From a virus: a DNA stretch of 50,037 nucleotides. Made by a program: the position numbers and the translations under genes. The notes below the pieces were generated by a model. That model was not told where the DNA came from and ran no database searches. It saw only the letters and a program-made list of their open reading frames with translations. Location: IMG/VR virus record IMGVR_UViG_3300020559_000006. The stretch is one strand, 5' to 3'. Of the stretch, positions 124 to 49,699 are shown one piece after another. How positions within the stretch are numbered: the first letter of the stretch is position 1; each line of letters opens with the position of its first letter.

Positions 124-360
124 ATGTCCAGACCTAATGAAGACAAAGTTCGGATTCAATGCCGACTGCCAAAAGACAAAAAAGCAGCCTGGGATAAGGT
201 TTTGATAGAAGCCGGCTTTTTCTTCCGGCAAAAAGAAAATATTTATCCTATGTATGGGGAATTTCTAGAAGCACTGCTAGATCGTGATCCTAGAGCGTCC
301 TCAGTTATTTTGAAAATATCTTCTAAAATAATTGAAAAACCACTTGACAAACTAGAATAA
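124..360 (+). CDS. TIR-encoded small protein, possible ribbon-helix-helix (CopG/Arc-like) regulator
   Basis: 78-aa ORF with a GGAG SD. N-terminal VRIQCRLPKDKKAAWDKVL looks like an RHH beta-strand followed by a helix. Paralogue at 49686..49910. Confidence 0.4.
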   Translation: MSRPNEDKVRIQCRLPKDKKAAWDKVLIEAGFFFRQKENIYPMYGEFLEALLDRDPRASSVILKISSKIIEKPLDKLE

Positions 361-372
361 CTCTAGTAGACT
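344..372 (+). promoter_or_regulatory. Inward-facing left-arm promoter (TTGACA-17-TAGACT)
   Basis: TTGACA 344-349 overlaps the 3' end of the TIR ORF; -10 at 367-372 followed by ATAAATATAGGG. Same architecture as the early promoter family. The spacer holds the inverted repeat ACTAGA-N5-TCTAGT. Confidence 0.55.
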
Positions 373-14846: not shown

Positions 14847-14850
14847 TTTA

Positions 14851-15444: not shown

Positions 15445-15447
15445 TTG

Positions 15448-17712: not shown

Positions 17713-17740
17713 AATCTCAGATAACAAAATCTGAGATTAT
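17711..17740 (-). promoter_or_regulatory. 12-bp stem hairpin that contains the J start codon
   Basis: ATAATCTCAGAT-AACAAA-ATCTGAGATTAT. On the minus-sense RNA the AUG lies in the 3' arm. Confidence 0.35.
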
Positions 17741-20143: not shown

Positions 20144-20242
20144 TGACTTAATCCCCTGGAATCCCGCCCATTTCGGACATACAGACTTTCAAAAAGAAGC
20201 CGATGGTAACAGGGGCTTTTTATTGGCAAATATAAAAATAAA

Positions 20243-20978: not shown

Positions 20979-21392
20979 TCAAACATAATTATTCAAAATT
21001 TCTAATTCACTTAACCGGAAGGTGGCCACAAGATTATCAGTTTCACTAAACGGCGATATTGACTCCCTACGACGGGGGAAATATTGCCGCATTTTGTCTA
21101 TGGCACTATTGAATTTAGAATATTCTGCGAGGGTTCTATCTCCTATTGTTTTAACAGAAACCACCCACTCATACCGCTGTTCTTGCTGACTATTCAGCAT
21201 TAGCGACGACGACGAAACATTTTTAAATCTACCAATACTTACTTCCAGTCCACCTGTAACCGCGCCTTTTGGGGCTGATGGTGGTTCTACCCAAACAGCA
21301 GGTTGTCCGTTACCAAAAGTACCAAGTTCCTGCGCTAGTAAATCAACAATTGCGGCTCTAAGCTCTGGTACAGTGTGGATGTTTTTAATCAT
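20979..21392 (-). CDS. Possible tail terminator/completion protein
   Basis: 137 aa. Call rests on size and N-terminal pattern only. Confidence 0.3.
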   Translation of the reverse strand: MIKNIHTVPELRAAIVDLLAQELGTFGNGQPAVWVEPPSAPKGAVTGGLEVSIGRFKNVSSSSLMLNSQQEQRYEWVVSVKTIGDRTLAEYSKFNSAIDKMRQYFPRRRESISPFSETDNLVATFRLSELEILNNYV

Positions 21393-21712
21393 GATAATTT
21401 CATGGATTGCGACGCTTTCAATGTTCCACTACTAACAGGAACTTCATCTAAAAACCGTTGATTCAAATAATGTGCGGTTTGGATAAATGCCATATCTAAA
21501 GTAGTTTGGTAGTTACTTTTAAAAACTGCGGGTAAATTACTACCAGCTAACGCCCGATCAGTCCATCGGTTTCCTTGTCTCTCATGCAAGTCATAGGCGT
21601 AGGGTGCTGACCATTGCCAATCGGCAATGGTTACGGTTAATCGTGGTGGTGTCCAGCTTCTCCAGATTGGCATTTTATTTTTATTTTTCCCATATCCCTC
21701 GACAATAAGCAT
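21389..21712 (-). CDS. Possible head-tail joining protein
   Basis: 107 aa. ATGA overlap with the next gene. Confidence 0.3.
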   Translation of the reverse strand: MLIVEGYGKNKNKMPIWRSWTPPRLTVTIADWQWSAPYAYDLHERQGNRWTDRALAGSNLPAVFKSNYQTTLDMAFIQTAHYLNQRFLDEVPVSSGTLKASQSMKLS

Positions 21713-21714
21713 AT

Positions 21715-21737
21715 AACCCTCTATTTTGAGGGTTTTT
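21715..21737 (+). terminator. Hairpin AACCCTC-TATTTT-GAGGGTT+TTT belonging to the repeated terminator-promoter unit
   Basis: Identical unit on the minus strand at 31331-31354. Here no plus-strand gene lies upstream. Confidence 0.5.
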
Positions 21738-21738
21738 A

Positions 21739-21819
21739 GTCATCAAAAAAATATTTTAAAAATTTTTCCAAAACCCCTTGACAAATATTTGTTATCCTGT
21801 TACTATATAAGAGTGAGAG
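21739..21819 (+). promoter_or_regulatory. Early promoter P1 (TTGACA-17-TACTAT) with palindrome ACAAATATTTGT
   Basis: -35 at 21778-21783, -10 at 21801-21806, palindrome at 21781-21792, A/T-rich upstream element. About 80 nt nearly identical to P2-P5. Confidence 0.8.
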
Positions 21820-21842
21820 AAAAAACAACAGGAGAAAGAACA

Positions 21843-22265
21843 ATGCTTGAATTAACAAATCAGAATCAGAGAATTATAGCTGGTTGCCTTGGAAATGGGG
21901 TCACTTTTGGGGATGTGCTTAATGATCAAACTGTGGCTCATGTTTCCTTTGAGGGGCAAATAACATGGCATTCTGATTACAAAAAAAAGATCGCAGAAGC
22001 TACTAAAAAACACATTCAAGAAACATCACTAGAATATCAAAAACAAGCCATGATCCCTCTTGATGCCATTATCAGCCCTAGAGATCACAAGTTTATGGCC
22101 ACTTACCTATATAAAAATTCTCAAGGTCAATACAAACATTTAGCAGATATCTACTACCCCAAAGGCAAGGACAAAGGGGGAGTTTATCTCAAAGTGTGGG
22201 AAGGCATTGTGCCACCTGAAATACTGGAAGAAATGAACCAGCTTTATAAATCCAATGGAGGATAA
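21843..22265 (+). CDS. Early protein, unknown function (140 aa)
   Basis: ATG 21843 after GGAGAAAG. The track start at 21726 lies upstream of the promoter. Confidence 0.7.
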   Translation: MLELTNQNQRIIAGCLGNGVTFGDVLNDQTVAHVSFEGQITWHSDYKKKIAEATKKHIQETSLEYQKQAMIPLDAIISPRDHKFMATYLYKNSQGQYKHLADIYYPKGKDKGGVYLKVWEGIVPPEILEEMNQLYKSNGG

Positions 22266-22302
22266 AACCCAGCCCCCAAAAGGGGCATTTTATATCACGA
22301 TA

Positions 22303-22327
22303 AAACCCTCAACTTTGAGGGTTTTTT
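22303..22327 (+). terminator. Rho-independent terminator
   Basis: AACCCTCAA..TTGAGGGTT followed by TTTTT. Confidence 0.75.
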
Positions 22328-22385
22328 ATTGTTTAAAATTCGTGGCAGTCTGAGAAATTTTACTAACTTAATTCACGGTAAACTG

Positions 22386-22463
22386 TCACTTTTTAACTTT
22401 AAAAAAACTTTCCAAAACCCCTTGACAAATATTTGTTATCCTGTTACTATATAAGAGTGAGAG
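22386..22463 (+). promoter_or_regulatory. Early promoter P2
   Basis: -35 at 22422-22427, -10 at 22445-22450; same palindrome. Confidence 0.8.
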
Positions 22464-22483
22464 TTCAATAAAAGGTAAAAACA

Positions 22484-22780
22484 ATGATTGATGTCTACTA
22501 CAGTTGTCTTCTGGATGAAGAAAACTGCCCAGAAATCACTACAGCATCAAGAAAAAGGGCTTTAGAATTAGCTCAACAAAAAACTAGTAACCCTGTATCA
22601 GTAGCAGAATTTGAAAAGGGGGAATATCTGTTATTTTATGAGAAAATTTCAGTTGATGAGACATTGCCTGAGAACAGGGGATATACTATAGAAGCCATTA
22701 TCAATGACTTAACTCCTCAATGTAGTGATGCAGAATATTCCTCTCATAGAAAAGTTAAAGTTACCTCCCAAGAGTGCTAA
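22484..22780 (+). CDS. Early acidic protein, unknown function (98 aa)
   Basis: ORF between P2 and a terminator; Glu/Asp-rich. Confidence 0.7.
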   Translation: MIDVYYSCLLDEENCPEITTASRKRALELAQQKTSNPVSVAEFEKGEYLLFYEKISVDETLPENRGYTIEAIINDLTPQCSDAEYSSHRKVKVTSQEC

Positions 22781-22807
22781 GACTGAAATATTTGTCCTAT
22801 TCTTAGT

Positions 22808-22836
22808 AACCCAGTGCATAAAACACTGGGTTTTTT
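22808..22836 (+). terminator. Rho-independent terminator
   Basis: AACCCAGTG-CATAAAA-CACTGGGTT followed by TTTT. Confidence 0.8.
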
Positions 22837-22847
22837 CATGTTGCCTA

Positions 22848-22928
22848 AGTCATCAAAAAATATTTTAAAAATTTTTCCAAAACCCCTTGACAAATATTTG
22901 TTATCCTGATACTATATAAGAGTGAGAG
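22848..22928 (+). promoter_or_regulatory. Early promoter P3
   Basis: -35 at 22887-22892, -10 at 22910-22915; same palindrome. Confidence 0.8.
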
Positions 22929-22952
22929 AAAAAAACAACAGGAGACAAAATA

Positions 22953-23216
22953 ATGTTTGTTACATTTGAAACCATAGAATCTAAACAAATCACAATTGAC
23001 ATCACTGGAGTAAGTGGCTGGGATAATGAGCAATTAACAAGATATGCCTGTGAACAATTGAATACAGACTACACAGATTATCAAGATAGAAGAAGTAGAA
23101 AACTGAAAAAAGGGGCAGTAGTAACTCCAATAAATTGGAGGCCTCTAAAAGTCTCTTGCAGACAAAAAATGCTTACCATAAAAAGACCACCTAGGAAATA
23201 TTCAGTAGTTTTCTAA
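22953..23216 (+). CDS. Early protein, unknown function (87 aa)
   Basis: ORF between P3 and a terminator. Confidence 0.7.
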   Translation: MFVTFETIESKQITIDITGVSGWDNEQLTRYACEQLNTDYTDYQDRRSRKLKKGAVVTPINWRPLKVSCRQKMLTIKRPPRKYSVVF

Positions 23217-23234
23217 ACATAAAACCTAAGCATA

Positions 23235-23270
23235 ATACCCTGGATTAGTGATAGTCCAGGGTATTTTTTT
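23235..23270 (+). terminator. Rho-independent terminator
   Basis: ATACCCTGGA-10 nt-TCCAGGGTAT followed by TTTTTT. Confidence 0.8.
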
Positions 23271-23350
23271 AGTCAAAAAAATATTTTAAAAAAACTTTCC
23301 AAAACCCCTTGACAAATATTTGTTATCCTGATACTATATAAGAGTGAGAG
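23271..23350 (+). promoter_or_regulatory. Early promoter P4
   Basis: -35 at 23309-23314, -10 at 23332-23337; same palindrome. Confidence 0.8.
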
Positions 23351-23369
23351 AAAAAACAGGAAACAAAAA

Positions 23370-24344
23370 ATGAGAGTAGCAGAAATTAACACCACAGAAC
23401 TAAATTTAGACCCCAAAAGATTTCAATACAAACTAGTCCACAATTCAACAGGTGCTACTGGTTCATTATCAGGAATTGACTCCTGGAATATCTATTTGTC
23501 AGGAATTGTATTGGTGTGGGAAGATTTTGGAGACATTTATGTGGTCAATGGTCACAACAGAGTAACCCTGGCCAAAAAGCTGGGGGTTCAAAAAGTTCTC
23601 TGTAGGTTCATTGATGCCTCTACTCATGTAGAAGCTAGGCTAGTAGGTGCACTGGCCAACATTGCAGAGGGTATGGGAACTGCCATTGATGCAGCCAAGT
23701 TTTTTAGAGACTCATCATATACCGTAAAAGACGTAAAAAACTTTGGCATTAATCCCAGGTTAAAAATAGTGCAAGATGGGTTAAGCCTGTCCAATCTGGT
23801 TAGTTTCCTGTTTGATAAGGTTATTACTGGCACTATTCCCATTGATAAGGGTGTGATTTTGGGTAGTGTAGGGACCAGAGAACAGTTGGAAGTCTGGGAA
23901 TTGATTAAGGATAAGCAGGTTAGCACCCCTGCATTGGATGAAATTATCGCAAATATCCTTAACCCTGCAACTGGGCAAATGTCCCTGCTTAACCTCTACA
24001 TAGACAGTGATGATGAGCTAATAAGACTAGAGTTAATTGCCCTGGTAAGGGTCAAGCTACAAAGATCCAAAAAACTATTACACTTAGTCTCAGATAACTC
24101 TCAATTCCTAGAGTCAATAGGAAACAACTTAAATCACACTGGCAACACATCAACTGGTGAGTTAACTCACTATGTGCTACAAATTTTTGACCAGTTAAAA
24201 AATCAGAGTGGACCAGTAAGTGACATTCTCAGTAAAGGTGTCAATGCTATAAAATCAGGTCAATCAATGCCTGATGTGATAACTGTTTGTGTTAATGAAC
24301 TAATCACAGTTATTCCTAGAATGATCAACCAAAAAGTTGCTTAA
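23370..24344 (+). CDS. ParB/Srx-like N-terminal domain protein
   Basis: IYVVNGHNRVTLAKKLGVQKV resembles the ParB box (DGHHR...A..LG). Confidence 0.55.
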   Translation: MRVAEINTTELNLDPKRFQYKLVHNSTGATGSLSGIDSWNIYLSGIVLVWEDFGDIYVVNGHNRVTLAKKLGVQKVLCRFIDASTHVEARLVGALANIAEGMGTAIDAAKFFRDSSYTVKDVKNFGINPRLKIVQDGLSLSNLVSFLFDKVITGTIPIDKGVILGSVGTREQLEVWELIKDKQVSTPALDEIIANILNPATGQMSLLNLYIDSDDELIRLELIALVRVKLQRSKKLLHLVSDNSQFLESIGNNLNHTGNTSTGELTHYVLQIFDQLKNQSGPVSDILSKGVNAIKSGQSMPDVITVCVNELITVIPRMINQKVA

Positions 24345-24358
24345 CCAAAGGTTTAACC

Positions 24359-24392
24359 AGTTGACTACTTGTTACAAGTGGTCAACTTTTTT
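24359..24392 (+). terminator. Rho-independent terminator
   Basis: 13-bp stem (one G:T) followed by TTTTTT. Confidence 0.75.
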
Positions 24393-24404
24393 GTATGAGA
24401 TAAA

Positions 24405-24923
24405 ATGAATAAACATAAACAGTTATCAATTTTTGACTTGTTTCCACAAGATGAGCAGGTGAGAGGCAAGGCAACTGAAACTCACCCCACACCACCACCT
24501 AGAAACTCAGTAATTGGCAAAATGAGGGCTATATCAATCCATGCTCCTCATGCTTATGCAATTTGCCTAGCAATAAAGCCCTATGAGTATAGAAACTCTC
24601 CTACAAAGTTTCGGGGTTGGGTTTTGATTCATTCCAGTGGCAGCAAAGCTAGTGATTCAAGCTTTAAAGACTATCAGTTAGAAGACATCAGACACCTTGT
24701 TTCCAGGCAAGCTTTAATTGGTGCTGGTTTTATATCAGACTGCCAGAGGATGGAAGAAGGGGGCTTTGCCTATTTATTCAGTGAGGTATTGTTATTTGAC
24801 AGCCCTGTTGAAGGGGTGAAGGGTTGCCAAAGCATATTTTGGGGGGACTGTAATGACCCTGCTAAAATAAAGGCTTTTGAGCAAGCTAGAGAAGAATTAA
24901 AGGCTTTTGATATTAGCCTTTAA
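24405..24923 (+). CDS. ASCH-like protein
   Basis: MRAISIHAPHAYAICLAIKPYEYRNSPTKFRGWVLIHSS matches the typical ASCH N-terminal pattern. Confidence 0.45.
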   Translation: MNKHKQLSIFDLFPQDEQVRGKATETHPTPPPRNSVIGKMRAISIHAPHAYAICLAIKPYEYRNSPTKFRGWVLIHSSGSKASDSSFKDYQLEDIRHLVSRQALIGAGFISDCQRMEEGGFAYLFSEVLLFDSPVEGVKGCQSIFWGDCNDPAKIKAFEQAREELKAFDISL

Positions 24924-24929
24924 TGTCCT

Positions 24930-24971
24930 GTAAAATAGAGGGTAATTAGTGCCAATTACCCTCTATTTTAC
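24930..24971 (+). other. Perfect 18-bp stem hairpin without a U tract
   Basis: GTAAAATAGAGGGTAATT-AGTGCC-AATTACCCTCTATTTTAC. Ends 1 nt before ATG 24973. Confidence 0.6.
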
Positions 24972-24972
24972 T

Positions 24973-25446
24973 ATGAATTGGATATACAGTATGCGTCCCG
25001 ATGTGGCGTTAATGGTGTTAGATAGCCAAATTAATATACTATTTTCTCCAATAAAAATAACCGGAAAAGTCGCAATTCATACGACATTTTATGAAGACAA
25101 GAAGGAACAAATAAAATGTGATCAAATGATTAGAGACATGGGGTACGAACCCGACCATATTCTCGAAGGTAGCTTAATGGGATGGGCAAAAGTTAAAGAG
25201 TGTATTGTTTACGATGACAATAGCTTTATGGCAGATTACAATAAGCACCGCTCTATAACGCCAAATTTACAGCAATTTAGGCAAGATAATCAATGGTATG
25301 GCGATGTTTTTGGAGTGTATTTAGAAAATATAAATATTCCAGCATTGCCGATAATCTGGATAGGGGAATACCAAAAACCCGGTACATGGTGGCAGCCCGG
25401 AGTACCGTTAGACTCCATCGGCTGCAAGATTTTATTTGCAAGTTAA
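24973..25446 (+). CDS. Hypothetical protein (weak ASCH/PUA-like resemblance)
   Basis: ORF; start uncertain (ATG 24973 or 24991). Confidence 0.4.
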   Translation: MNWIYSMRPDVALMVLDSQINILFSPIKITGKVAIHTTFYEDKKEQIKCDQMIRDMGYEPDHILEGSLMGWAKVKECIVYDDNSFMADYNKHRSITPNLQQFRQDNQWYGDVFGVYLENINIPALPIIWIGEYQKPGTWWQPGVPLDSIGCKILFAS

Positions 25447-26093
25447 GCGGCTCTTTGTGATCTTCGTCTATTGGCTATCTGTTTAATAAGTTGACCTCTA
25501 GCCGCCCTTGCTTCGCTAGGTCTAGGACGGACTGCTGGTGTTGGTGCTGTTGCTGATGCAGCCCTCCTAGAACCTCTGTTTTGATGGGGATCACCACTGG
25601 TGCTACCACCACCAGCATTGCCAGTCCTACCGCCACCACCGCCAGCATTAGCAGTAAGCCCACTTCTTCGTGCTTCTCTCATTGTCCTCCTAGAAGTTGG
25701 GTCAAGAAATTCTGCTGTCGAATAACGGTTTAGCCTGTTACGTCTTCTGGCTGGGGTATCATTGTAAGCATCAAAGCCAATCCTCATCCTCCGTGGCGTA
25801 CCTTGTCCACCTCCAATACCTCTAGCAACGTTAGCAATGCCGCCTCTAGTGCTACCGCCACCAGCATTGCCAGTGCTACCGCCACCAGCATTGCCAGTCC
25901 TACCGCCTCTTCGTGCTGTTTCTGCTATTACTTGCGGCCTACTACGTGTATCAGTAAAATCCCCCCTTTGTTGTGCTGGTGTGAAAAAACGGTTAATCCT
26001 GTTGCGAGTTCTAGGGTTCTCAAAATCAAGTCCAGTACTTATCCGTCGCCTACCTTGTCCGCCTCTAGTGCTTCTAGCAACGCCTCTAGCCAT
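25443..26093 (-). CDS. Arg/Gly-rich low-complexity protein with internal duplication
   Basis: Repeats GRTGNAGGGST(GNAGGGST) and two RxRNRxNRF/Y segments. ATG 26093 after AGGA. All other frames open here are shadows. Confidence 0.55.
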   Translation of the reverse strand: MARGVARSTRGGQGRRRISTGLDFENPRTRNRINRFFTPAQQRGDFTDTRSRPQVIAETARRGGRTGNAGGGSTGNAGGGSTRGGIANVARGIGGGQGTPRRMRIGFDAYNDTPARRRNRLNRYSTAEFLDPTSRRTMREARRSGLTANAGGGGGRTGNAGGGSTSGDPHQNRGSRRAASATAPTPAVRPRPSEARAARGQLIKQIANRRRSQRAA

Positions 26094-26140
26094 AACGGTC
26101 AATCCTAATTTTGTAAATATGTTTATCTTTAGTTTTCCCA

Positions 26141-26470
26141 ATGACGGTATTAGCAGAAAGTGATGCAGTTCACTACGAGTTACTGACAGATGAGAGCGAG
26201 ATTATCGGCAGCGTGTTTGCTGTTGACCAGTGCGAGTATATCGAGATAGTTGATTTATCCGTTGGACAAGAATTTCAAGGTCAAGGTTATGGGCGATCGC
26301 TCATGCAGATAATCTTTGACAATCACCCAGACACCATACTTTGTTTACGATGCAGCGCGTTCGACAATGGATTAAGTCAGGAAAACTTAGCGGAATGGTA
26401 TAAACGGCTGGGATTTGTGGATGGTACACCATTTCATCAAGGTGATGGGTGGATGCACAGACCTATTTAG
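26141..26470 (+). CDS. GNAT-family acetyltransferase
   Basis: Motif A VGQEFQGQGYGRSLMQ and C-terminal WYKRLGF. Confidence 0.6.
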   Translation: MTVLAESDAVHYELLTDESEIIGSVFAVDQCEYIEIVDLSVGQEFQGQGYGRSLMQIIFDNHPDTILCLRCSAFDNGLSQENLAEWYKRLGFVDGTPFHQGDGWMHRPI

Positions 26471-27353
26471 CCGTCAGCCTGGCGCTAACTTCTGGGAACA
26501 AGTCACACAATTCTTTGAGTTGAACGGGTGCGTAACGCGCTAACCACTTATAATAAGTTCCACACAGAATTTCTGGGCTACAATACCAAAGCGTCCGGGG
26601 AAATGGCTTGCCTTTTTTCTGCGGTATTTGGTGCATTGAGTAAATAGGTGAGATTGGTGCGTCCTCTTCCACTAGCAACGCCCAAACATCAATATCAAGC
26701 CAATCACCTATCGGGAGTCCACGCACATAGGGTAAATAGTCTTTTTTGTCCTGATCACGGAATTGAATTAGTCCTTCTCGACTAATTTCAAACTGGCGTT
26801 CCATGCCTTCCGCGCCGCGATTTCCCCACATACACATTACATTGGGGTTTCCATCACCATAATTATGCTGAAATTGATAGATGGCTTCGTAGGAAATGCT
26901 ATCCCTCATTTCTCCCCAATCCCAAAAATTCAATGGTTGTCCATCTTTAGTTTTTAATCCGTAAGAATTACCCCAATCTAAATATTTTTTAATAATTAAT
27001 GGAAACGGGTCATCAGTTAAATACTCCTCATAATAAAACCCGTTACCAAATGAATTGATATAATCCTCCCACTCTGGCAAAACATCATAGTGGTGCGGAA
27101 GTTCCGCACCGCAATCAATAATTAAATTACAATAATCAACCTCTGCTAATTCCAAAATTATTGCAGTTGCCATTGAGTCTTTACCGTACCCAAACCACAA
27201 TCCTGGTATGACATCCTGATTAATTTTAGGATCATCATACCAAGTCCGCACACGCTCAATGGTTTTGTTCTTGAGTGCCTGAAATTCATCAGTTTTCGCC
27301 CGTTTCGCTGCTTCTATATATTTCTTCTGCGGCAGTGCTTTCGATATTTCCAT
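26463..27353 (-). CDS. PAPS-reductase-like (PP-loop; IbrA-like) protein
   Basis: WFGYGKDSMATAIIL resembles the SGGKDS PP-loop. Last gene of the sigma-ParB operon. Confidence 0.5.
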   Translation of the reverse strand: MEISKALPQKKYIEAAKRAKTDEFQALKNKTIERVRTWYDDPKINQDVIPGLWFGYGKDSMATAIILELAEVDYCNLIIDCGAELPHHYDVLPEWEDYINSFGNGFYYEEYLTDDPFPLIIKKYLDWGNSYGLKTKDGQPLNFWDWGEMRDSISYEAIYQFQHNYGDGNPNVMCMWGNRGAEGMERQFEISREGLIQFRDQDKKDYLPYVRGLPIGDWLDIDVWALLVEEDAPISPIYSMHQIPQKKGKPFPRTLWYCSPEILCGTYYKWLARYAPVQLKELCDLFPEVSARLTAK

Positions 27354-27981
27354 CTCCCCAAATATCCCCTTCTAAAATGTTTTCAGGCCAAGTCAGTACA
27401 TCTTCTTCTGTGCGCTGCACTTCTTCTTGGGTTTCTTCGCTGTCATCTTCTTCTTGGTCGTCACTTTCTTCTTGGGCATCATGGATTAATTTCTCCAATT
27501 CTTCTAGTGGTAAATCAGCGTCTAGTTTCAATTGTTGAATACAAGCAAGTGCTAATTCTCGCGCCATTCTGTCTTGTGATTTTTGCAGAATAGCAACAAT
27601 AAATGCCTTGCAAATATCTAACTGACGGCGGACATCCCCCATTTTTGATAGGCGAACCGCGCCATCCGCTAAAGCTAAAGTTCCCTGAAATGCTGCCAAC
27701 ATTCCGTTTAAATCAAGTCCTAAAAGCCGCAGTTTTAATTCTTCGACAAACTCAAAAGTTAGCTCCCCTTGTTCAACTAAAATTTCACACGCTTGGAGCA
27801 AAGTTTTCCCTTCTTTGGAGAATTTCCCCGCGCCTTCAATTTGTGAAAGAATCCGACCATGGGCAGCATAAAAACTCTCACGGACAATGCTCTCAAAGTC
27901 ATAATCTTGGGCATCCGTGAAAGCGTCGCGCCATTTCCCAGATAATCGTTTACCGTAGAGTCCGTTATTCTTCTTTGGCAT
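27289..27981 (-). CDS. Hypothetical protein with acidic C-terminal tract
   Basis: 230-aa ORF; EESDDQEEDDSEETQEE tail. Overlaps the downstream gene by 65 nt. Confidence 0.5.
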   Translation of the reverse strand: MPKKNNGLYGKRLSGKWRDAFTDAQDYDFESIVRESFYAAHGRILSQIEGAGKFSKEGKTLLQACEILVEQGELTFEFVEELKLRLLGLDLNGMLAAFQGTLALADGAVRLSKMGDVRRQLDICKAFIVAILQKSQDRMARELALACIQQLKLDADLPLEELEKLIHDAQEESDDQEEDDSEETQEEVQRTEEDVLTWPENILEGDIWGDGNIESTAAEEIYRSSETGEN

Positions 27982-28270
27982 TACGAACCAACCGGACTAC
28001 TTGGGTAATTATCTTGTTGACTTCCTGCATCGCTTTTGAACGGCGACCATGCCTGATGTTGTTCTTTCCACATTTGGATTTATCGCGTGGTCCGGTTGAC
28101 TTCTCCCAAGGCCTATGTACTAAACATCGTTGACGTGCGGCTTCTATAAACTCAGGTGATAGGTTTTTCCGCTTGTACCTTTTAGGCGGATATTTTTTAG
28201 CCCTGAATGACTCCAAAAACTTGTCAGAATCCAACGTTTTCGGCTGTGATTGCTCCGTCTGTACTGTCAT
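27965..28270 (-). CDS. Small basic protein
   Basis: 101 aa, Lys/Arg-rich; overlaps both neighbours. Confidence 0.45.
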   Translation of the reverse strand: MTVQTEQSQPKTLDSDKFLESFRAKKYPPKRYKRKNLSPEFIEAARQRCLVHRPWEKSTGPRDKSKCGKNNIRHGRRSKAMQEVNKIITQVVRLVRNAKEE

Positions 28271-29195
28271 TTATTGCCACTCCTAACTCGGTGCTCATCA
28301 TGTCTACTATCTTTAGAATTACCTGACTCCGATATTGCTGAACCATGCCCTCAGTTGAGATGCCAATTTTGGGTGCAAGTTGGTCAAGTTTAGAGCGAAA
28401 ATTAGCTAAATCACCCTTATCTAAAAAGATAAAAAACTGTGTTTGCTCACCCTTCCCGGTGTAGTTAATTGACTGAACTGCACCAACATCTGTCACATTT
28501 TCAGTTTCAACAATGACCTTTTCCGCAGGTGGTGGAGGTGTGTAATCGCTTCTACTGGGTGTTACGTCAATGGTAGTGCCATCTTCACTCATTTGAGGAT
28601 TTGGGTATTTCTCGTCATCAAAATCGTAACCCGTTTCTTCCTGTTCCTCTTCCGGTTCTTCTTTGCGAACTAGAAAGGCTCGCATAAAACTGTTAGCAGT
28701 TGAAGTATCCCAACCCGCTGTTTTAATCTGTCTTTTGGGCATTTGCGCCAAAATTGCGGCAATTTTACCGGGGTCATCACGTCCATCATGGCTAGTATTG
28801 TTAAGTCGAAGCAGCGCCGACTTTTGGGATAGTTCATCGAGCGTGACGGGAACGACGGGGATAGCAGTCCAATAATTAGCACAAAACCGCTCTCGATGTT
28901 TTTCGGCTACTTTATCTCTCCCCGTCCCTTTGATCCACCGATCCCACTCTTTCAGGAAAAAATCTTCATCCTGTTGGCTTAACCAATCCGCACCCTGAAC
29001 CCTGCCATGTCCTGAGATGAGGTAGCCGAAACTACCGTCTAGGTTTCGCTGAATTGTGGGGTAAATCAACCATCCAAAATCTAGCAAGCTGTCACGAATC
29101 CAAGGCAAATCATTCTCTTCTGAATGTTCGCGGGGATTTTCAGGGTGGAATTTTGCCAATACGCTGGAGATTGGCAATCGTAAAACTTCACTCAT
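28224..29195 (-). CDS. ParB-like N-terminal domain protein (IbrB-like)
   Basis: GYLISGHGRVQGADWL box. Acidic linker and unknown C-terminal half. Confidence 0.55.
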   Translation of the reverse strand: MSEVLRLPISSVLAKFHPENPREHSEENDLPWIRDSLLDFGWLIYPTIQRNLDGSFGYLISGHGRVQGADWLSQQDEDFFLKEWDRWIKGTGRDKVAEKHRERFCANYWTAIPVVPVTLDELSQKSALLRLNNTSHDGRDDPGKIAAILAQMPKRQIKTAGWDTSTANSFMRAFLVRKEEPEEEQEETGYDFDDEKYPNPQMSEDGTTIDVTPSRSDYTPPPPAEKVIVETENVTDVGAVQSINYTGKGEQTQFFIFLDKGDLANFRSKLDQLAPKIGISTEGMVQQYRSQVILKIVDMMSTELGVAINDSTDGAITAENVGF

Positions 29196-30309
29196 TTTTA
29201 GCCTTCTCTACCGCTTGTTGTGAGTGAATCATTGCCTCATGCAGCGATTTTAACGCCGCTTCTACTTGAGGAGAATCGCCACAGGTTTTGATCACCCAAT
29301 CTGCAAGTCCGGTAAACTTGCTGGTAATTTGCCATTGTTGTTGTACTACCGTCATTTGTTTCTTCGATAGATTTATTAAATTATTGATAACATAATTTTT
29401 ACTCCATAGGTAAGCGGTGCTGTGGTCAACTCCCAAATAAGTTTCACACCAATAACTAGATTTACCGTTAGCGATCGCCTCCAATACTTTCACCTTCACA
29501 TCATTAGAATAGCCACGTCTCCCAGTCGGTAACGGGTTTTCTCTGAATTGAGTCTGGCAGGACTTACACAAATAACCCTGTTTTCCGTCACGCTTACCAT
29601 TTTTAATAGTTTGGTAATCTTTGCAATTTGGGCATTGAACCCGCCCTACTGCTATCAACTTTAATTTTCGTAAAGCGTCAGATTCAATTCGGCGCAACTC
29701 CTTCAATTTAATATTATGGATTTGGCACAACATTTTGGCGGGGATATGGGTAATATATAAATCTTTGATGATTGTGGCGTGAAGTTCTGGCAACTTATCA
29801 AGCAGCGGGAGAATTGACTCTGATTCCTCTGCTTGCTCCGTTGTCAACTGTTCGGGTAGTTCAGGATTATTTTGATTGCAAGCTATCGCCGCCTCTTTGG
29901 CAACTTGTAAAGAGATATTTAGTTCAATGGCCGCTTGTTCATAAGTTACGCCATGTTTTTGCGCGTGTCGCTTCAATTTTTGGTGGGTTTCTTGGAGGGG
30001 ACGCGGAACTTTTACCATCCGCGCTTTATCCCTGACAAATTGCGCCATTGCACCATAAATAAACGGCACGGCGTAACTGGAAAGTTTAATTTTCTTAGTA
30101 GGGTCAAACCTCTCCACCGCTTTGATTAATCCCTCCGCCCCAATTTGTATCAGGTCTTCTCTTGGGACTGTGCAGCAAGCGGTCATTTTACCTGCTATAT
30201 GACCGACTAGCCCCATGTTAGTCTCAACTATTTTGTTTCTCAGTCGGATGTCCCTGGTTTGGTGAAAATTAATTAAAAGTTGCTGATTGTCTAAGTATGC
30301 CGCGTCCAT
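29188..30309 (-). CDS. Sigma-70 family factor fused to a C-terminal InsA-like zinc ribbon plus HTH
   Basis: Region 2 DLIQIGAEGLIKAVERFDP...SYAVPFIYGAMAQFVRD, region 3 VKVPRPLQE, region 4 ELRRIESDALRKLK. Then CPNCKDYQTIKNGKRDGKQGYLCKSCQTQF. Confidence 0.85.
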   Translation of the reverse strand: MDAAYLDNQQLLINFHQTRDIRLRNKIVETNMGLVGHIAGKMTACCTVPREDLIQIGAEGLIKAVERFDPTKKIKLSSYAVPFIYGAMAQFVRDKARMVKVPRPLQETHQKLKRHAQKHGVTYEQAAIELNISLQVAKEAAIACNQNNPELPEQLTTEQAEESESILPLLDKLPELHATIIKDLYITHIPAKMLCQIHNIKLKELRRIESDALRKLKLIAVGRVQCPNCKDYQTIKNGKRDGKQGYLCKSCQTQFRENPLPTGRRGYSNDVKVKVLEAIANGKSSYWCETYLGVDHSTAYLWSKNYVINNLINLSKKQMTVVQQQWQITSKFTGLADWVIKTCGDSPQVEAALKSLHEAMIHSQQAVEKAKNE

Positions 30310-30695
30310 TTATCCCAAATTTAGTAATAACTTTTAAATTACCCAGTCCTGGCGTGTTTGTCACTGACCCCGAAACAGGAAACCCTGTGCAAACTACAAC
30401 TGATGTAGTAGTACAAGCATGGATGGAGGGTAACGCCGCAGTTAAACCCGAACCAGGGCAAAACCCAAATGTAGTTAACTTGCGCGGGTATGCTGTAAAA
30501 CCCCGATTACTGCCAACTGAGTTGATCCGTAAACAGTCGGAAGCATCAGCCGTTTATGTTGACCCATTGACGGGGAATGAGCAAACGGGGAAATTTACGC
30601 TACAACCGCAGTTTGACGGAAAACGCCCCAGAGTTACAAAGGCTTTAGCCCGTGCTTTGGGGTCTGAATTACAAGGTACTTTTGAGTTTAGTTGA
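30297..30695 (+). CDS. Hypothetical protein (start uncertain)
   Basis: 132-aa ORF whose ATG overlaps the sigma gene start head-to-head by 13 nt. Confidence 0.4.
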   Translation: MPRPFIPNLVITFKLPSPGVFVTDPETGNPVQTTTDVVVQAWMEGNAAVKPEPGQNPNVVNLRGYAVKPRLLPTELIRKQSEASAVYVDPLTGNEQTGKFTLQPQFDGKRPRVTKALARALGSELQGTFEFS

Positions 30696-30879: not shown

Positions 30880-30912
30880 AAAAAATGGGGTGATAGTTCA
30901 CCCCATTTTTTT
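30880..30912. terminator. Bidirectional rho-independent terminator
   Basis: AAAAAA-TGGGGTGA-TAGT-TCACCCCA-TTTTTTT between convergent genes. Confidence 0.8.
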
Positions 30913-30968: not shown

Positions 30969-31226
30969 TTAGTAAGGGGCGTTTTGAATCAACCATTGAA
31001 TGTCCCCCTCATAGAGTTCCTGGTCTTCAGAGAACTCATTAACAAGATGACAAGCTTTGACAGCTTCACCTAGCAATTGTTTTGTTTGGCTCTGATCAGA
31101 CATCCAAAATGTCCAGTTTTTTTGATTACCTAATTCAACCATTTTTGCAAAAATTTCTTTTGCATATTCACACACTTTAGACCCCCATATCCAAGCACAT
31201 ATTAAATCAATTTCTACATTTTTCAT
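30969..31226 (-). CDS. Early protein, unknown function (85 aa)
   Basis: ATG 31226 after AAAGG, downstream of P5. Confidence 0.65.
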   Translation of the reverse strand: MKNVEIDLICAWIWGSKVCEYAKEIFAKMVELGNQKNWTFWMSDQSQTKQLLGEAVKACHLVNEFSEDQELYEGDIQWLIQNAPY

Positions 31227-31247
31227 GGTTTTACCTTTATTTCTCAA

Positions 31248-31330
31248 CTCTCACTCTTATATAGTAACAGGATAACAAATATTTGTCAAGGGGTTTTGGA
31301 AAGTTTTTTTAAAATATTTTTTTGATGACT
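31248..31330 (-). promoter_or_regulatory. Early promoter P5 (minus strand)
   Basis: -35 at 31289..31284, -10 at 31266..31261. Nearly identical to P1-P4, including the upstream element. Confidence 0.8.
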
Positions 31331-31354
31331 AAAAAACCCTCAAAATAGAGGGTT
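31331..31354 (-). terminator. Terminator of the repeated terminator-promoter unit
   Basis: The minus strand reads AACCCTC-TATTTT-GAGGGTT-TTTTT, 8 nt after the stop of 31362..31568. Confidence 0.7.
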
Positions 31355-31361
31355 ATATGCG

Positions 31362-31568
31362 TTATTCACCTTGTTTTTCTTTCTTCAATTTTGCCCGCTT
31401 TAGTCGCATATACTCTCTCATGTACTCTCGTTTGGCATCCTTGCGTTCGCGGTCTAATTCGCGTTCACGTTCCCTGACTTCAGGCTTCTGGCGATATTTC
31501 TTCCTCCGTGCCTTACCTTTTTCAGATCTTTCGTAATTCCATTGAGCTTTTCTTAAATTCTCGTCCAT
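31362..31568 (-). CDS. Highly basic coiled-coil-like small protein (68 aa)
   Basis: KARRKKYRQKPEVRERERELDRERKDAKREYMREYMRLKRAKLKKEK. Driven by P6. Confidence 0.6.
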   Translation of the reverse strand: MDENLRKAQWNYERSEKGKARRKKYRQKPEVRERERELDRERKDAKREYMREYMRLKRAKLKKEKQGE

Positions 31569-31648
31569 CGTGTTATACTCCTAATATTCCTGTTGAACTC
31601 TCACAATTTTCGCAGAGAAGACATAGCACCCCTCATGAGGGGTGCTAT
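31553..31648. repeat. ~95-bp direct repeat, copy A
   Basis: Covers the first 5 codons and 5' leader of 31362..31568 plus the 26-nt palindrome 31623-31648. About 85% identical to 33445-33542. Confidence 0.85.
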
Positions 31649-31675: not shown

Positions 31676-31740
31676 TCTCTACATTTATATAGTAACAGCC
31701 TAACAAATATTCGTCAAGGGGGTTTTGGAAAGTTTTTCAA
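31676..31740 (-). promoter_or_regulatory. Early promoter P6 (diverged family member, TTGACG-17-TACTAT)
   Basis: -35 at 31717..31712, -10 at 31694..31689. The palindrome is degenerate (ACGAATATTTGT). Confidence 0.65.
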
Positions 31741-35923: not shown

Positions 35924-36550
35924 TTAAAAGTCCTCCTGTTCTTGTTCTTTCTTGCCCCCTAAAAGCTCTAATTCTCCAACTAAAATTACGGGTTTTGACC
36001 GTAATTCGCCTGTGCTTTTATCCGTCCATTCCTCAAATTTTATTTGTCCAAGAATGCCGATTAATCCGCCCTTGCGGACATAATTGCCCATCACCTCACC
36101 AGTCTTACCCCACGCTTCTAAATCAAACCAATCTGTCTGTGATGTGCGACGGACGGCTAAAGAGCATGATGTTTTGTTAGTACCAGACTCAAAATACCTG
36201 ACTTCTGGATCACGCCCTACCCGTCCTGCAATGCTGACAGAATTAACGTTTACCGGACTAGAAACCATGTCTAAAGCACTGATTTTAAACTCAGTTACTT
36301 TGGTTTTAGTGCCGTTACTTTCTTTGCTGATAATGTTGATTGCACCAACCAAGACAATAGCTTGATTCTCATCAAGTTGCGCTATTAATTCAGCTAATTT
36401 GCCAAATCCCACACACTTAATCTGTTTGACAGACTCCGATTTACTAGCATTTTGAAATGCTAGTAAGAACTCAGACATAGGTTTGTTGTCATGGCTATAT
36501 CTAAGTTGTGGAGGGGATGAAATGATGCCCGATAAAACTGCGTTATTCAT
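35924..36550 (-). CDS. ssb: Single-stranded DNA-binding protein with two OB folds
   Basis: Second half VSIAGRVGRDPEVRYFESGTNKTSCSLAV...WFDLEAWGK. First half LSGIISSPPQLRY... Acidic tip EQEQEDF. Confidence 0.8.
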   Translation of the reverse strand: MNNAVLSGIISSPPQLRYSHDNKPMSEFLLAFQNASKSESVKQIKCVGFGKLAELIAQLDENQAIVLVGAINIISKESNGTKTKVTEFKISALDMVSSPVNVNSVSIAGRVGRDPEVRYFESGTNKTSCSLAVRRTSQTDWFDLEAWGKTGEVMGNYVRKGGLIGILGQIKFEEWTDKSTGELRSKPVILVGELELLGGKKEQEQEDF

Positions 36551-36923: not shown

Positions 36924-37628
36924 TTACGCAACCTCTGTTAAAACTTTAGGAAACTCACCTCTTAACACTTGTTGCCATTTTTGAACCGATGTTAAATCAG
37001 GGGATTTAACATTTTCTGTATAAGAATGAAGTGCCTGAAATTCATCCACGCCCTGAGAAATTGCCCAGTCAATGCACATATCTTTAATGAGTTGTTCAGC
37101 AGACTCTAGCTCTTTAATTGATGGAACTTGATAACTGGACAGCCAATTTATAACCCAGGCTTTCTCAACTTTCAGAAATTCCCTGATTTGCTTAATGGCA
37201 TTGCCAATGGACAATTGTCTGCTGTTGACTGATTGTCTGCTGTTGTAGGTTTTCTGTGCGGTTTTATCATCCTTTGCGCTATTTGCATCGTCATCTTCAT
37301 CAGCCGTGATTGATAACAAAGCACAAACAGTATAGCGGCGGGCATAAGTCAAAGCCGCCCCTTTCTTTTGGCTATCCTGAATATCAGGAAGCTCATATTC
37401 ACTGGTCAAAAATTCTCCTGACTCATGAAACAAATGAGTTTTTAATATGCTCCCTTTCTCCATGACTTGGACAATTGCCAATCCATGTTTACAAAGCACT
37501 GGAGTAACAGCGTCTAGAACTGAATCTAGAGATGCATAGGACACTTTAAAATGTGGATTGATTTTGTCTTTTTGTATGGACGGGAACTCAGCCCGTGCTT
37601 TTATCAATGCCTTAATTAGTTCAATCAT
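36924..37628 (-). CDS. erf: ERF-family single-strand annealing recombinase
   Basis: FKVSYASLDSVLDAV...HESGEF...KKGAALTYARRYTVCALLSITADEDDDANS. Confidence 0.8.
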   Translation of the reverse strand: MIELIKALIKARAEFPSIQKDKINPHFKVSYASLDSVLDAVTPVLCKHGLAIVQVMEKGSILKTHLFHESGEFLTSEYELPDIQDSQKKGAALTYARRYTVCALLSITADEDDDANSAKDDKTAQKTYNSRQSVNSRQLSIGNAIKQIREFLKVEKAWVINWLSSYQVPSIKELESAEQLIKDMCIDWAISQGVDEFQALHSYTENVKSPDLTSVQKWQQVLRGEFPKVLTEVA

Positions 37629-49660: not shown

Positions 49661-49699
49661 ACTCTACTAGACTTATTCCAATTTGTCAAGGGGTGTCAA
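49661..49699 (-). promoter_or_regulatory. Inward-facing right-arm promoter (TTGACA-17-TAGAGT) with duplicated -35
   Basis: -35 at 49689..49684, with a second CCCCTTGACA copy at 49699..49694; -10 at 49666..49661. Drives the FGE-like gene. Confidence 0.55.

Follow-up and report, generated by a model that had tools for sequence, protein, structure and literature searches.

Why does a phage genome carry several almost identical copies of one promoter-like sequence, and what do these copies do for the genes that they precede? The question is raised by positions 21,715 to 23,350 of the IMG/VR record IMGVR_UViG_3300020559_000006, which was analyzed over its full length of 50,037 nucleotides (the window). 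The window looks like the complete genome (~50 kb) of a siphovirus-like cyanophage, with tail genes of lambda-like type (TMP_3, tail J, L, and M) and a Terminase_6N TerL, and has no close isolate; the phage probably infects Dolichospermum or a different member of the Nostocaceae. Taken as a whole, the observations appear to be best explained by cassettes with promoters for the host sigma factor that also recombine with each other, a reading that we consider quite probable.

Anatomy of the repeated unit and its cassettes

The 29-nt core of the unit, TTGACAAATATTTGTTATCCTGnTACTAT, is present in the whole window in five exact copies, at 21778, 22422, 22887, and 23309 on the plus strand and at 31289 on the minus strand, and in one copy with 3 mismatches at 31717 (minus strand), against an expectation of 0; none of 100 shuffles gave a match (0/100). 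All positions named in the preliminary description, which had reported five near-identical units (four on the plus strand, one on the minus strand) and a diverged one at 31717, were recovered, and the six copies are confined to 21.7-23.4 kb and 31.2-31.7 kb. The same description put the unit at ~80 nt; the near-identity of the copies stands but the repeat is longer, extending from the tail of a terminator through a UP-like A/T tract to one of two shared types of leader with a ribosome-binding site (RBS). Repeat pairs in the window span 68-93 nt at 91-100% identity (units U4 and U5, for instance, form an inverted repeat of 93 nt with 94% identity), and in one gene pair the repeat continues through the first 11 codons. 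The layout is TTGACA-17-TGnTACTAT, where n is the only variable core base within the window copies, with an A/T-rich tract at -40 to -65 in all copies and an ATG with an RBS 32-38 nt downstream of each. Scored against the sigma-70 consensus with TG, the units reach 10/12, with agreement at 4/6 positions of the -10 TACTAT, and are the best promoter-like sites in the region.

Unit U1 (21740..21842, plus strand) consists of an A/T-rich UP-like tract, the -35 (21778-21783), a 17-nt spacer with TGn, the -10 TACTAT (21801-21806), a start-site box ATAAGAGTGAGAG (21807-21819), and a leader/RBS of type a; it also contains CCAAAACCCC. Three further units follow on the plus strand: U2 (22390..22483; -35 at 22422, -10 at 22445-22450, start box at 22451-22463, leader type b), U3 (22845..22952; -35 at 22887, -10 at 22910-22915, start box at 22916-22928, leader type a), and U4 (23258..23369; -35 at 23309, -10 at 23332-23337, start box at 23338-23350, leader type a). 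The minus strand carries U5 (31227..31334; -35 at 31289-31284, -10 at 31266-31261, start box at 31260-31248, leader type b) and the diverged unit P' (31676..31740; -35 TTGACG at 31717-31712, -10 at 31694-31689). The related diverged promoters that had been noticed in the terminal inverted repeats (TIRs) are indeed present, at 344..372 (plus strand, left TIR) and 49661..49689 (minus strand, right TIR), with 61% identity. In a scan of the genome, exact TTGAC[AG]-N17-TAnnnT sites were found in the units, the TIRs, and the XRE region, along with one intra-ORF site at 2980, and none ahead of a structural gene.

On the plus strand, the units precede cargo gene A (21843..22265, 140 aa), whose ORFan family counts just 6 protein clusters in 5.8 billion, cargo gene B (22484..22780, 98 aa), cargo gene C (22953..23216, 87 aa), and gene D (23370..24344, 324 aa), which encodes a ParB-like protein conserved in cyanobacterial siphoviruses; sequence and profile searches of the PDB gave no significant match for D. 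Past the terminator of D lies gene G' (24405..24923, plus strand, 172 aa), here without a unit of its own. On the minus strand, U5 precedes cargo gene I (30969..31226, 85 aa), and a very basic 68-aa protein is encoded at 31362..31568, with a leader hairpin upstream at 31623-31648; in the ancestral array, the latter gene occupies the conserved first cassette. In the relatives L019 and L003, P' would additionally drive a 77-aa gene, H, that is missing in the window. The minus-strand gene beside 21715 most likely starts at 21673 and encodes 94 aa, as in the relatives. No match to Pfam, PHROGs, or NCBIfam was detected for A, B, C, I, or the 68-aa protein, and J-domain proteins, found in relatives, are the only cargo with a recognizable domain. 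The Rfam search gave no match above the gathering threshold in the window, with chance-level matches only in the array.

Each of the cassette genes A, B, C, D, and I is followed by a hairpin with a T-run, at 22302-22325, 22808-22832, 23234-23265, 24359-24387, and 30911-30880 (minus strand), respectively, with folding energies of about -13 to -21 kcal/mol. The predicted terminators are located at 22302..22331 (A; plus strand, -15.7 kcal/mol, with a second small hairpin at 22272-22286), 22808..22838 (B; plus strand, -13.3 kcal/mol), 23234..23272 (C; plus strand, -20.9 kcal/mol), 24359..24393 (D; plus strand, -15.5 kcal/mol), and 30880..30911 (I; minus strand, -20.4 kcal/mol), and a symmetric, bidirectional-looking terminator at 24932..24968 (-24.3 kcal/mol) closes the plus-strand array. 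Viewed from the units, a predicted hairpin with a T-run lies directly upstream of U1, U3, U4, and U5, and the nearest upstream terminator of U2 is that of A, about 90 nt away. Of the original proposal that each copy drives one short gene followed by its own terminator, the terminators are retained but the gene of the fourth unit, at 324 aa, is not short.

Exchange and inversion of cassettes among relatives

The unit was found in 60 copies in 17 related contigs, in association with 19 cargo gene families. The -35 and the -10 are each conserved in 59/60 units, TGn in 54/60, and the spacer length in all 60, and a same-strand ORF starts 26-63 nt past the -10 in 60/60 units, so that the proposed promoter-gene-terminator anatomy holds, at the level of sequence, across this set. 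In the distant relatives L089 and L031, the -35, the -10, and the UP-like tract are kept but the spacer is not; across the 60 units, spacer alleles group by genome. Scans of metagenome contigs with a spacer-free unit pattern produced 0 matches, and the unit pattern likewise gave 0 matches in genome contigs of 185,579 species genomes, and the unit therefore does not derive from any host genome or prophage that has been sequenced. Two sets of viral contigs were discarded, namely L008-L016 from the spacer-free viral scan, which carry unrelated single consensus promoters, and L086 and L087, where the matches to the unit pattern are due to chance. All relatives are metagenome assemblies, in which repeats can produce mis-joins; each gene arrangement is present in at least two independent samples.

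The preliminary description predicted that the repeats would make the genes exchangeable, and the relatives bear this out, with insertion, deletion, swap, duplication, replacement, and block inversion all observed at units. L005 has exactly one additional module, consisting of a unit, gene E, and a terminator; the cassette order in L004 is A-B-C-E-F-G; B and C have swapped order in L003; C is duplicated in L006 and L019; and L017 keeps the units and D with entirely different cargo. Gene C represents the commonest cargo family among the relatives (15 cassettes), and its paralogue C' occupies the second locus of L002, L007, L090, and L091. Gene D is a cassette too, and is missing from this position in L004, in which G, the homologue of G', has its own unit. 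The junctions of the insertions, duplications, swaps, replacements, and inversions between relatives are all located in units, and homology at the junctions spans the whole 70-110 nt. The exception is a deletion in L001 that joins codon 28 of A to the 172-aa gene with at most 5 nt of microhomology, leaving G fused to the first 28 codons of A.

The inversion involves segment S (22853..30689), which extends from C and D through the sigma operon and the 132-aa ORF. Six contigs from different samples (L019, L018, L092, L096, L099, and L089) carry this segment in the opposite orientation with respect to both flanks; compared to the other lineages, the clade of the window has an inverted block of ~9-9.5 kb, located between terminator-unit modules of opposite orientation, and in L099 a terminator-unit module sits at the inversion junction. 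In a crude tree of segment S (541 columns), the window-type isomer forms one tight clade nested among other lineages, on the basis of which recurrent flip-flop inversion was rejected; from these sequences, the inversion looks like a single historical event rather than ongoing flipping.

The history of the locus is also reflected in hairpin T, AACCCTCTATTTTGAGGGTT followed by a T-run, the attachment of which to a unit at both 21715 and 31354, as originally reported, was confirmed. The left copy (21715..21739, plus strand) has no plus-strand gene upstream in the window, and the right copy (31335..31354, minus strand) ends the 68-aa gene; the two sites share a 29-nt stretch of 100% complementarity, and the predicted fold of the hairpin has an energy of -10.9 kcal/mol. 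Given that hairpin T ends real upstream genes in L004 and L019, copying of the whole terminator-promoter module, as initially suggested, is supported. In the scenario that we favor, insertion of an inverted cassette, with the 132-aa ORF on one side and the 94-aa gene on the other, would have created inverted terminator-unit modules (the state seen in L099), and a later inversion would have split a co-directional array of the form P'-68aa-T-U... into the plus-strand array at 21.7-23.4 kb and the minus-strand pair at 31.2-31.7 kb. The seemingly orphan terminator at 21715 would then be there because this inversion split the original array.

Being nearly identical, the 70-110-nt modules would also serve as substrates for homologous recombination. 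The phage encodes an Erf-family single-strand-annealing recombinase (36924..37628, minus strand; PF04404, 1.6e-21) and an SSB (35924..36550, minus strand; PF00436, 6.9e-33), the latter being the likely partner of Erf. Recombination between units would probably be catalyzed by this phage-encoded pair, with Erf as the candidate catalyst; single-strand-annealing proteins recombine short, diverged repeats, as reported in two publications (PMC3945230, PMC8093625). Under this mechanism, recombination between direct copies would result in insertion, deletion, duplication, or reordering of cassettes, recombination between inverted copies would flip the intervening block, and the copies within one genome would be kept alike by the same process (concerted evolution).

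Promoter specificity, the palindrome, and the start box

The units are most readily interpreted as strong promoters for RNA polymerase with the primary sigma factor of the host, each joined on its upstream side to an intrinsic terminator and on its downstream side to a standard leader carrying an RBS. Such a fusion of terminator, promoter, and leader would make every small gene an insulated, self-sufficient transcription cassette, expected to be expressed immediately upon DNA entry into the cell. The anatomy of the sequence, its regular placement ahead of genes, and the rearrangements with junctions at units are observed directly, whereas we infer the promoter and terminator activity, early timing, use of the host sigma factor, role of Erf, and functions of the cargo.

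The phage itself encodes a SigF-like (group 3) sigma factor (29188..30309, minus strand, inside segment S) that is likely to drive later transcription, and the consensus units are therefore read as early promoters for the host sigma factor. The opposite assignment, in which the SigF-like protein recognizes the units and the cassettes are middle or late genes, could be suggested by the position of the sigma gene within a unit-flanked segment and by the strictly conserved non-consensus TACTAT and start box, which could mean a specialized specificity, but we find it highly improbable. Promoters for primary (group 1) sigma factors have as their hallmarks the -35 TTGACA, a spacing of 17 nt, and an extended -10 with TGn, and the group 3 sigma factors of the SigB/F/G type recognize other -35 and -10 motifs; furthermore, the sigma gene would first require host-driven transcription, and the same type of promoter precedes the regulator region and the TIR genes. 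Still less credible is a site-specific process in which the units are integron- or invertase-like sites or mobile elements, with the likeness to promoters being secondary. Although the cassettes behave as discrete movable modules, a block has been inverted between inverted copies, and this route was left open also for the comparable elements of T4-type phages discussed below (PMC4122927), the units lack terminal inverted repeats and target duplications, the homology at junctions over the full 70-110 nt fits homologous exchange, and the phage has an Erf recombinase. Scans with Pfam, PHROGs, or both, which covered ~58 ORFs (all but about twenty smaller ones), detected no integrase, serine invertase, or transposase; the one exception is a weak InsA-like zinc ribbon within the sigma factor. 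A candidate hix-like invertase site in CCAAAACCCC was dismissed given that it has no dyad and that no invertase gene was found.

The preliminary description also singled out a 12-bp palindrome, ACAAATATTTGT, overlapping the -35 and spacer, as an operator candidate, with the XRE protein or the RHH-like proteins of the TIRs as possible binders. The palindrome is present in the five exact copies, but, because these are copies of one sequence, they amount to one observation and not to five. Binding of a phage dimeric repressor, such as XRE, that switches off all cassettes together would be consistent with the perfect palindrome in the five exact units of the window, with ACAA-N4-TTGT half-sites kept in 46/60 units (the ATATTTTG allele included), with the overlap with the -35, a classic repressor position, and with the XRE-type HTH protein encoded in the genome; the operators of phage 434 have the form ACAA-N6-TTGT, which offers a lead. 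Nevertheless, this interpretation appears unlikely, and the role of a conserved operator is not supported by the comparison with relatives: the palindrome is perfect in only 30/60 units and absent from several relatives, and 14 units, including all those of L095, L096, L099, and L089, have no right half-site and retain the -35, the -10, and the start box. Moreover, the -35 hexamer accounts for three of the four bases in the left half-site, 1.7-6.6% of unit shuffles contain a 12-bp palindrome by chance, and gene conversion alone predicts conservation within a genome. No ACAA-N4-TTGT was found in the genome beyond the five units, near the XRE gene and its own promoters included. The allele ATATTTTG does not break the palindrome outright, since the ACAA/TTGT half-sites are retained; an operator is therefore contradicted more strongly by the alleles AATATATAGTAA and TTATTTTTTTAA, which, along with TTTTTTnnGTAA, are found in close relatives, and by the more distant L089, where an unrelated spacer is combined with the same -35, -10, and start box. 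As for the proposed binders, there is no Pfam support for the TIR proteins being RHH-like. The XRE region contains TATAGT-type boxes, and CTATAGT clusters near the XRE gene and in the TIRs, considered as XRE operators, were rejected because their placement is that of -10 TATAGT boxes.

The -35, the -10, and the 13-nt start box ATAAGAGTGAGAG are nearly invariant across the units, which makes the start box a better candidate than the palindrome for a regulatory site. Given that a plain sigma-70 promoter needs no such box, its conservation makes an extra layer of regulation or an RNA function likely. A bolder combination, namely that the inverted modules are a working switch, with two isomers of the ~9.5-kb block kept in the population, and that ATAAGAGTGAGAG is the real control site of the regulon, seems to us distinctly unlikely. 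If it were true, flipping would couple or uncouple the operon of the 132-aa, 94-aa, and 137-aa genes and change which promoter serves which cargo, in a block that carries the sigma factor, and control through ATAAGAGTGAGAG would act at the DNA level or at the RNA 5' end.

Relation to known phage systems

The pattern described here for the cassettes is not new in principle, having already been described for T4-like phages. The units of the window match, in a new group of phages, the elements known as promoter-early stem-loops (PeSLs) from phages of the T4 type (Arbiol et al., 2010, PMC2839356; Comeau et al., 2014, PMC4122927). Both combine a sigma-70-like early promoter, an A/T-rich upstream tract, a stem-loop terminator, and a 3' RBS with a start codon; in both, many copies are concentrated in a hyperplastic region beside ORFans, and differences between close relatives map to the elements, with recombination between copies having been proposed. 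The PeSL-containing phages are T4-like myoviruses of 160-250 kb, compared to the siphovirus-like cyanophage of ~50 kb analyzed here, but residence in T4-type myoviruses reflects where the class was described, not how the elements work. There are also differences in the elements themselves: the present copies are nearly identical over 68-110 nt whereas PeSLs share motifs only, and, unlike in PeSLs, the stem-loop is always upstream of the A/T tract, the repeat includes the 13-nt start-site box and two standard leaders, and copies are also found in inverted orientation, having flipped a 9.5-kb block. For PeSLs, promoter and terminator activity and mini-circles were demonstrated by experiment, whereas the activity of the present units is predicted from their sequence.

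Promoter-terminator modular shuffling, described for T4-like myoviruses that infect Gram-negative bacteria, is thereby extended to an uncultivated siphovirus-like lineage, the hosts of which are probably bloom-forming filamentous cyanobacteria, and the 17 contigs, 60 units, and 19 cargo families form an unusually clean natural series in which each type of rearrangement is legible. As leads, the cassettes could provide a short list of probable immediate-early host-takeover genes for hosts of the Dolichospermum/Aphanizomenon type and a compact, probably strong set of promoters, leaders, and terminators for cyanobacterial genetics; the conserved start-site box is another lead.

The promoters of the morons of lambdoid phages, described by Hendrix and colleagues, are unrelated, and moron expression typically takes place from the prophage. 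As in the cassettes described here, a moron is a single extra gene with its own promoter and terminator that is located between other genes and varies among relatives. Unlike in morons, one promoter is common to all the present cassettes and exchange appears to proceed via that promoter; no integrase, CI-like module, or other lysogeny gene was seen in the ORFs scanned.

SPO1's host-takeover module (Stewart et al., 1998), located in the terminal redundancy of a large myovirus, likewise comprises clusters of small, early, highly expressed genes in short operons with strong host-type promoters and RBS, as outlined in a later account (PMC6873191). The description of that module does not include cassette exchange through identical promoter repeats; many of the SPO1 gene functions have been tested, whereas the cargo of the window consists of predicted genes. 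In halovirus HF2 (PMC8707807), conserved intergenic repeats are archaeal promoters that are kept among relatives, as are the present units; the positions of the HF2 repeats are reported to be strongly conserved, whereas in the phages analyzed here the content between the repeats turns over.

Predicted promoter units, their conservation and the start box

The predicted promoter cassettes are a real, well-defined feature of the window. The 29-nt core of the repeated promoter unit, TTGACAAATATTTGTTATCCTGnTACTAT, matches exactly at five places, four on the plus strand (21778, 22422, 22887, 23309) and one on the minus strand (31289); a further copy, at 31717 (-), has 3 mismatches, and 100 shuffles gave no match. 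A repeat finder gave copy-to-copy similarity of 91-100% over 68-93 nt in direct and inverted orientation, and the diverged promoters in both terminal inverted repeats were also recovered, so that the preliminary description of this repeat family holds, with four corrections given below. In a consensus scan, the five exact copies are the top sigma-70-like sites in the region (10/12 positions, 17-nt spacer, TG before the -10). The repeat begins in the terminator tail and runs through one of two standard leaders as far as the start codon, and a terminator (hairpin plus T-run; predicted folding at -13 to -21 kcal/mol) follows each cassette gene, at 22302-22325, 22808-22832, 23234-23265, 24359-24387 and 30911-30880. 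The proposal that each array copy drives one short gene with its own terminator stands for the terminators and fails for the fourth unit, which precedes a 324-aa gene (ParB-like gene D). As described, one hairpin, AACCCTCTATTTTGAGGGTT, is joined to the unit at both 21715 and 31354, the two sites sharing a perfectly complementary 29-nt stretch (inverted repeat); the minus-strand gene neighbouring 21715 most likely starts at 21673.

Relatives were collected through the exact core (7 IMG/VR contigs), D homologues (70 loci), the start-box pattern (which added L089) and exact-protein look-ups (L090-L099), and a census with a relaxed unit pattern yielded 60 units on 17 contigs. TTGACA and TACTAT are each kept in 59 of these, the 17-nt spacer length in all 60 and TGn before the -10 in 54; in every unit a same-strand ORF begins 26-63 nt past the -10. 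Several alleles, grouped by genome, exist for the 5' spacer half (AATATTTGTTAT, ATATTTTGTTAT, AATATATAGTAA, TTATTTTTTTAA, TTTTTTnnGTAA). The more distant contig L089 retains the -35, the -10 and the box that follows, with an unrelated spacer, and the still more distant L031 (D at 41% identity) retains only the A/T tract, CCCAAACCCC and TTGACA. Promoters are conserved in this way, and an operator in the spacer is not.

An operator role had been suggested for the palindrome ACAAATATTTGT, which is present in all five exact core copies. Across the census, the perfect 12-bp palindrome occurs in 30 of the 60 units and the half-sites ACAA-N4-TTGT in 46; the remaining 14 have lost the right half-site and retained everything else, and three of the four bases of the left half-site fall within the -35. 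By chance, a perfect palindrome of 12 bp or more forms in 6.6% of shuffled 80-nt units and in 1.7% of shuffled 52-nt cores, and the five window palindromes, being copies of one sequence, constitute one observation rather than five. No additional ACAA-N4-TTGT site was found in the whole genome or near the XRE gene. The operator reading is thus unsupported and quite improbable, though conceivable for the window's own allele. A better candidate for a control site or a functional RNA 5' end is the 13-nt start box directly after the -10, ATAAGAGTGAGAG (window 21807-21819 and equivalents; A-T-A-A-G-A-G-T-G-A-G-A-G, each position 83-100% conserved over the 60 units on 17 contigs). Conserved above the spacer and retained even in L089, it is the more strongly constrained non-canonical part of the unit, and could serve in discriminator or start-site tuning, as a DNA control site or as a 5' RNA element.

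Some other promoter-like repeats were noticed. L031 has two 127-nt units with the same upstream part, CCCAAACCCCTTGACA. A phage contig of high GC content (66%) that encodes a D homologue, L038, carries at 137-4085 five copies of a different unit, each ahead of a small gene; the -10 of this unit is TACAAT, and a conserved, structured leader comes after it. Promoter-unit arrays of this near-identical kind may be widespread in the wider phage group. In the window, CTATAGT occurs 12 times (4.2 expected), with tandem clusters in both terminal repeats and around the XRE gene (85-98, 49940-49953, 38778-38797, 39123-39129); positioned like -10 TATAGT boxes, these copies possibly mark a second promoter class.

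Cassette exchange and inversion among relatives

Cargo families, clustered by BLASTP and denoted by letters, are arranged differently in the left arrays of related contigs. The window has A140-B98-C87-D324; L005 has A-B-C-E92-D; L004 has A-B-C-E-F122-G140, without D and with G preceded by its own unit; L003 and L092 have H77-68aa-C-B-D, with B and C swapped; L006/L019 have H-68aa-C-C-D, with C duplicated; L017 has genes of 104, 68 and 162 aa before D, the cargo being all different and D 79% identical; L094 and L095 have other combinations. The second locus of L002, L007, L090 and L091 contains an additional cassette, C', with 58% identity to C. The insertion in L005 is exactly one unit-gene-terminator module with borders within the repeat, and the hairpin that looks orphaned at 21715 closes real genes in relatives, namely F in L004 and in L019 the 68-aa gene, which bears out the earlier suggestion that the terminator-promoter module is copied as a whole. 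The proposed exchangeability of the genes is likewise borne out by module insertion, swap, duplication and cargo replacement with junctions in units, and comparative support for a recombination role of the units is good. One event bypasses the units: in L001, a deletion of B, C and D fuses codon 28 of A in frame to a 172-aa gene at a junction with microhomology of at most 5 nt. The only functional hints for the cargo are DnaJ matches, above the Pfam cut-off for F of L004 and just under it for the 162-aa protein of L017.

Part of the minus strand is duplicated in the window (31570-31648 and 33464-33545): the hairpin ATAGCACCCCTCATGAGGGGTGCTAT, together with a leader and the opening codons of the 68-aa gene, recurs in the gap that separates ORF 33037-33435 from the terminase gene. 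The additional gene H of L019 and L003 is followed by this hairpin, so that in the leader of the window's 68-aa gene it is a leftover.

In L019/L018, L092, L096, L099 and L089, the counterpart of window 22853-30689 has the opposite orientation, judged against the flanks on either side (20985-21677, and from 31248 on). In these genomes the diverged unit, H where present, the 68-aa gene, the terminator hairpin and the units form a single co-directional array, and the 132-aa ORF (window 30297-30695) leads directly into the 94-aa and 137-aa genes with overlapping TAATATG; both features suggest that this arrangement is most likely ancestral. L099, the closest such relative (91.7% identity across 4.2 kb), has an inverted cassette (71-aa gene, unit, terminator hairpin) between the 132-aa ORF and the 94-aa gene, with a junction collinear with window 20981-21833. 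This is the substrate to be expected for the inversion, with inverted terminator-unit modules flanking the block at both ends. In a crude neighbour-joining tree (541 columns), the window-type isomer (window, L002, L090, L091) is one tight clade nested among the others, and we accordingly read the inversion as probably a single derived event, not as a block that flips often. Other arrangements, also joined at units, occur in L017 and L094; the block of L017 lies between the two arms of a 98-nt inverted repeat, which contains units.

Adjoining this rearrangement-prone region, and apart from the other tail genes (9151-17727, -), is a tail-protein-L homologue (20243-20920, +). It and the 94-aa gene are preceded by a shared leader with start codon, AAATAAAAATAAAATGCCAAT (20230-20250, +, and 21666-21686, -); in L017 this leader is joined to units on either side of the invertible block.

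Phage context, proposed mechanism and known systems

In content the window resembles a complete phage genome: it encodes a lysozyme-domain tape-measure protein (3960-9071), J-, L- and M-type tail proteins, the large terminase (33578-35068), portal (44441-45955), Erf (36924-37628), SSB (35924-36550), an XRE-type regulator and a minus-strand sigma factor (29188-30309) whose nearest match is cyanobacterial SigF (group 3). In this sigma factor region 4 is followed by an InsA-like zinc ribbon, and its start overlaps the divergent 132-aa ORF (30297-30695) by 13 nt. No integrase, invertase or transposase was detected among the ~58 ORFs scanned. Enrichment of HIP1 (GCGATCGC; 20 occurrences, 0.24 expected) points to a cyanobacterial host, and D homologues occur on a contig binned with a Dolichospermum genome (85% identity) and in a Nostocaceae bin (54%). 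Searches found no close isolated phage: the best terminase identity is ~25%, and the array DNA gave no match. Two ParB-like proteins are encoded, at 23370-24344 (+; D) and 28224-29195 (-). Two motifs of D, DPxRFQYK and VVNGHxR, are invariant, and its family comprises at least 130 clusters; D has homologues with ~40% identity in Prochlorococcus siphoviruses P-SCSP1, and gave no match in Pfam and PDB sequence searches.

The sequences themselves show the anatomy of the units, their constant placement ahead of genes, the way they are conserved and the rearrangements joined within them; the mechanism proposed here draws in addition on established knowledge. Primary-sigma promoters are typified by TTGACA at -35, a spacing of 17 nt and TGn, and a phage that brings its own alternative sigma relies on the host sigma first. 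Host polymerase would fire all cassettes simultaneously at entry, and the terminators would keep each cassette transcriptionally separate from its neighbours and from the convergent sigma operon. Exchange driven by Erf, with the 70-110-nt modules as partners, could then produce both cargo turnover and homogenisation of the copies; two papers describe recombination of short, imperfect repeats by Erf-type annealing proteins (PMC3945230, PMC8093625).

The closest described system is the promoter-early stem-loop (PeSL) element of T4-type phages, in which a strong early promoter of sigma-70-like type is joined to an A/T-rich tract and a stem-loop terminator; it ends 3' with an RBS and start codon, clusters in hyperplastic regions beside ORFans and mediates modular shuffling between relatives (PMC2839356, PMC4122927). 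The class also has experimental hallmarks, namely activity and mini-circles. Read from sequence alone, the window units share all sequence-level features of this class, but they differ in phage group, the window not being of the T4 type. In the cyanomyovirus S-PM2, PeSLs were looked for and judged unlikely to be responsible (PMC4503421). Looser analogues are morons, the SPO1 host-takeover module (PMC6873191) and the promoter-bearing intergenic repeats of halovirus HF2 (PMC8707807). Specialists would find the pattern familiar; the natural rearrangement series and the start box merit follow-up.

Additional repeats in the window

The terminal inverted repeats (~328 bp; 1-328 and 49706-50037), each with a 74/78-aa paralogue and an inward-facing promoter, are unusual for a terminase-packaged phage. 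Their outer 108 nt are 99% identical and the rest 91%, a divergence that argues against an assembly artefact, although the contig ends could also mark a break within a large palindrome in a circular map.

Directly after the stop codons of ORFs 406-558 and 618-1769 lie the two copies (533-605 and 1748-1830, +) of a direct repeat of 73 nt with 97% identity. Within it is a hammerhead core, made up of CUGACGAG, stem II and CGAAAC. All three stems and a GUC cleavage site are present in the second copy, which scores 23.1 bits for Rfam Hammerhead_1, below the cut-off of 34 (E 0.0099); the first is without the stem I 3' strand. Since hammerhead cleavage leaves 2',3'-cyclic phosphate ends, the 2H-phosphoesterase-like ORF just 3' of the repeats (tRNA_lig_CPD, 2219-2581) is suggestive.

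Two intergenic gaps in minus-strand operons hold the copies of a 56-nt inverted repeat (39230-39285 and 46000-46055; 96% identical), which contains a hairpin and lies in opposite orientation at the two sites, upstream of the XRE gene at one and of the portal gene at the other. Finally, a 21-nt tandem repeat of ~14 copies (31827-32116; 7-aa periodicity) lies within a 422-aa ORF (31779-33047), the length of which differs among relatives (387 aa in L090, 422 aa in L091).
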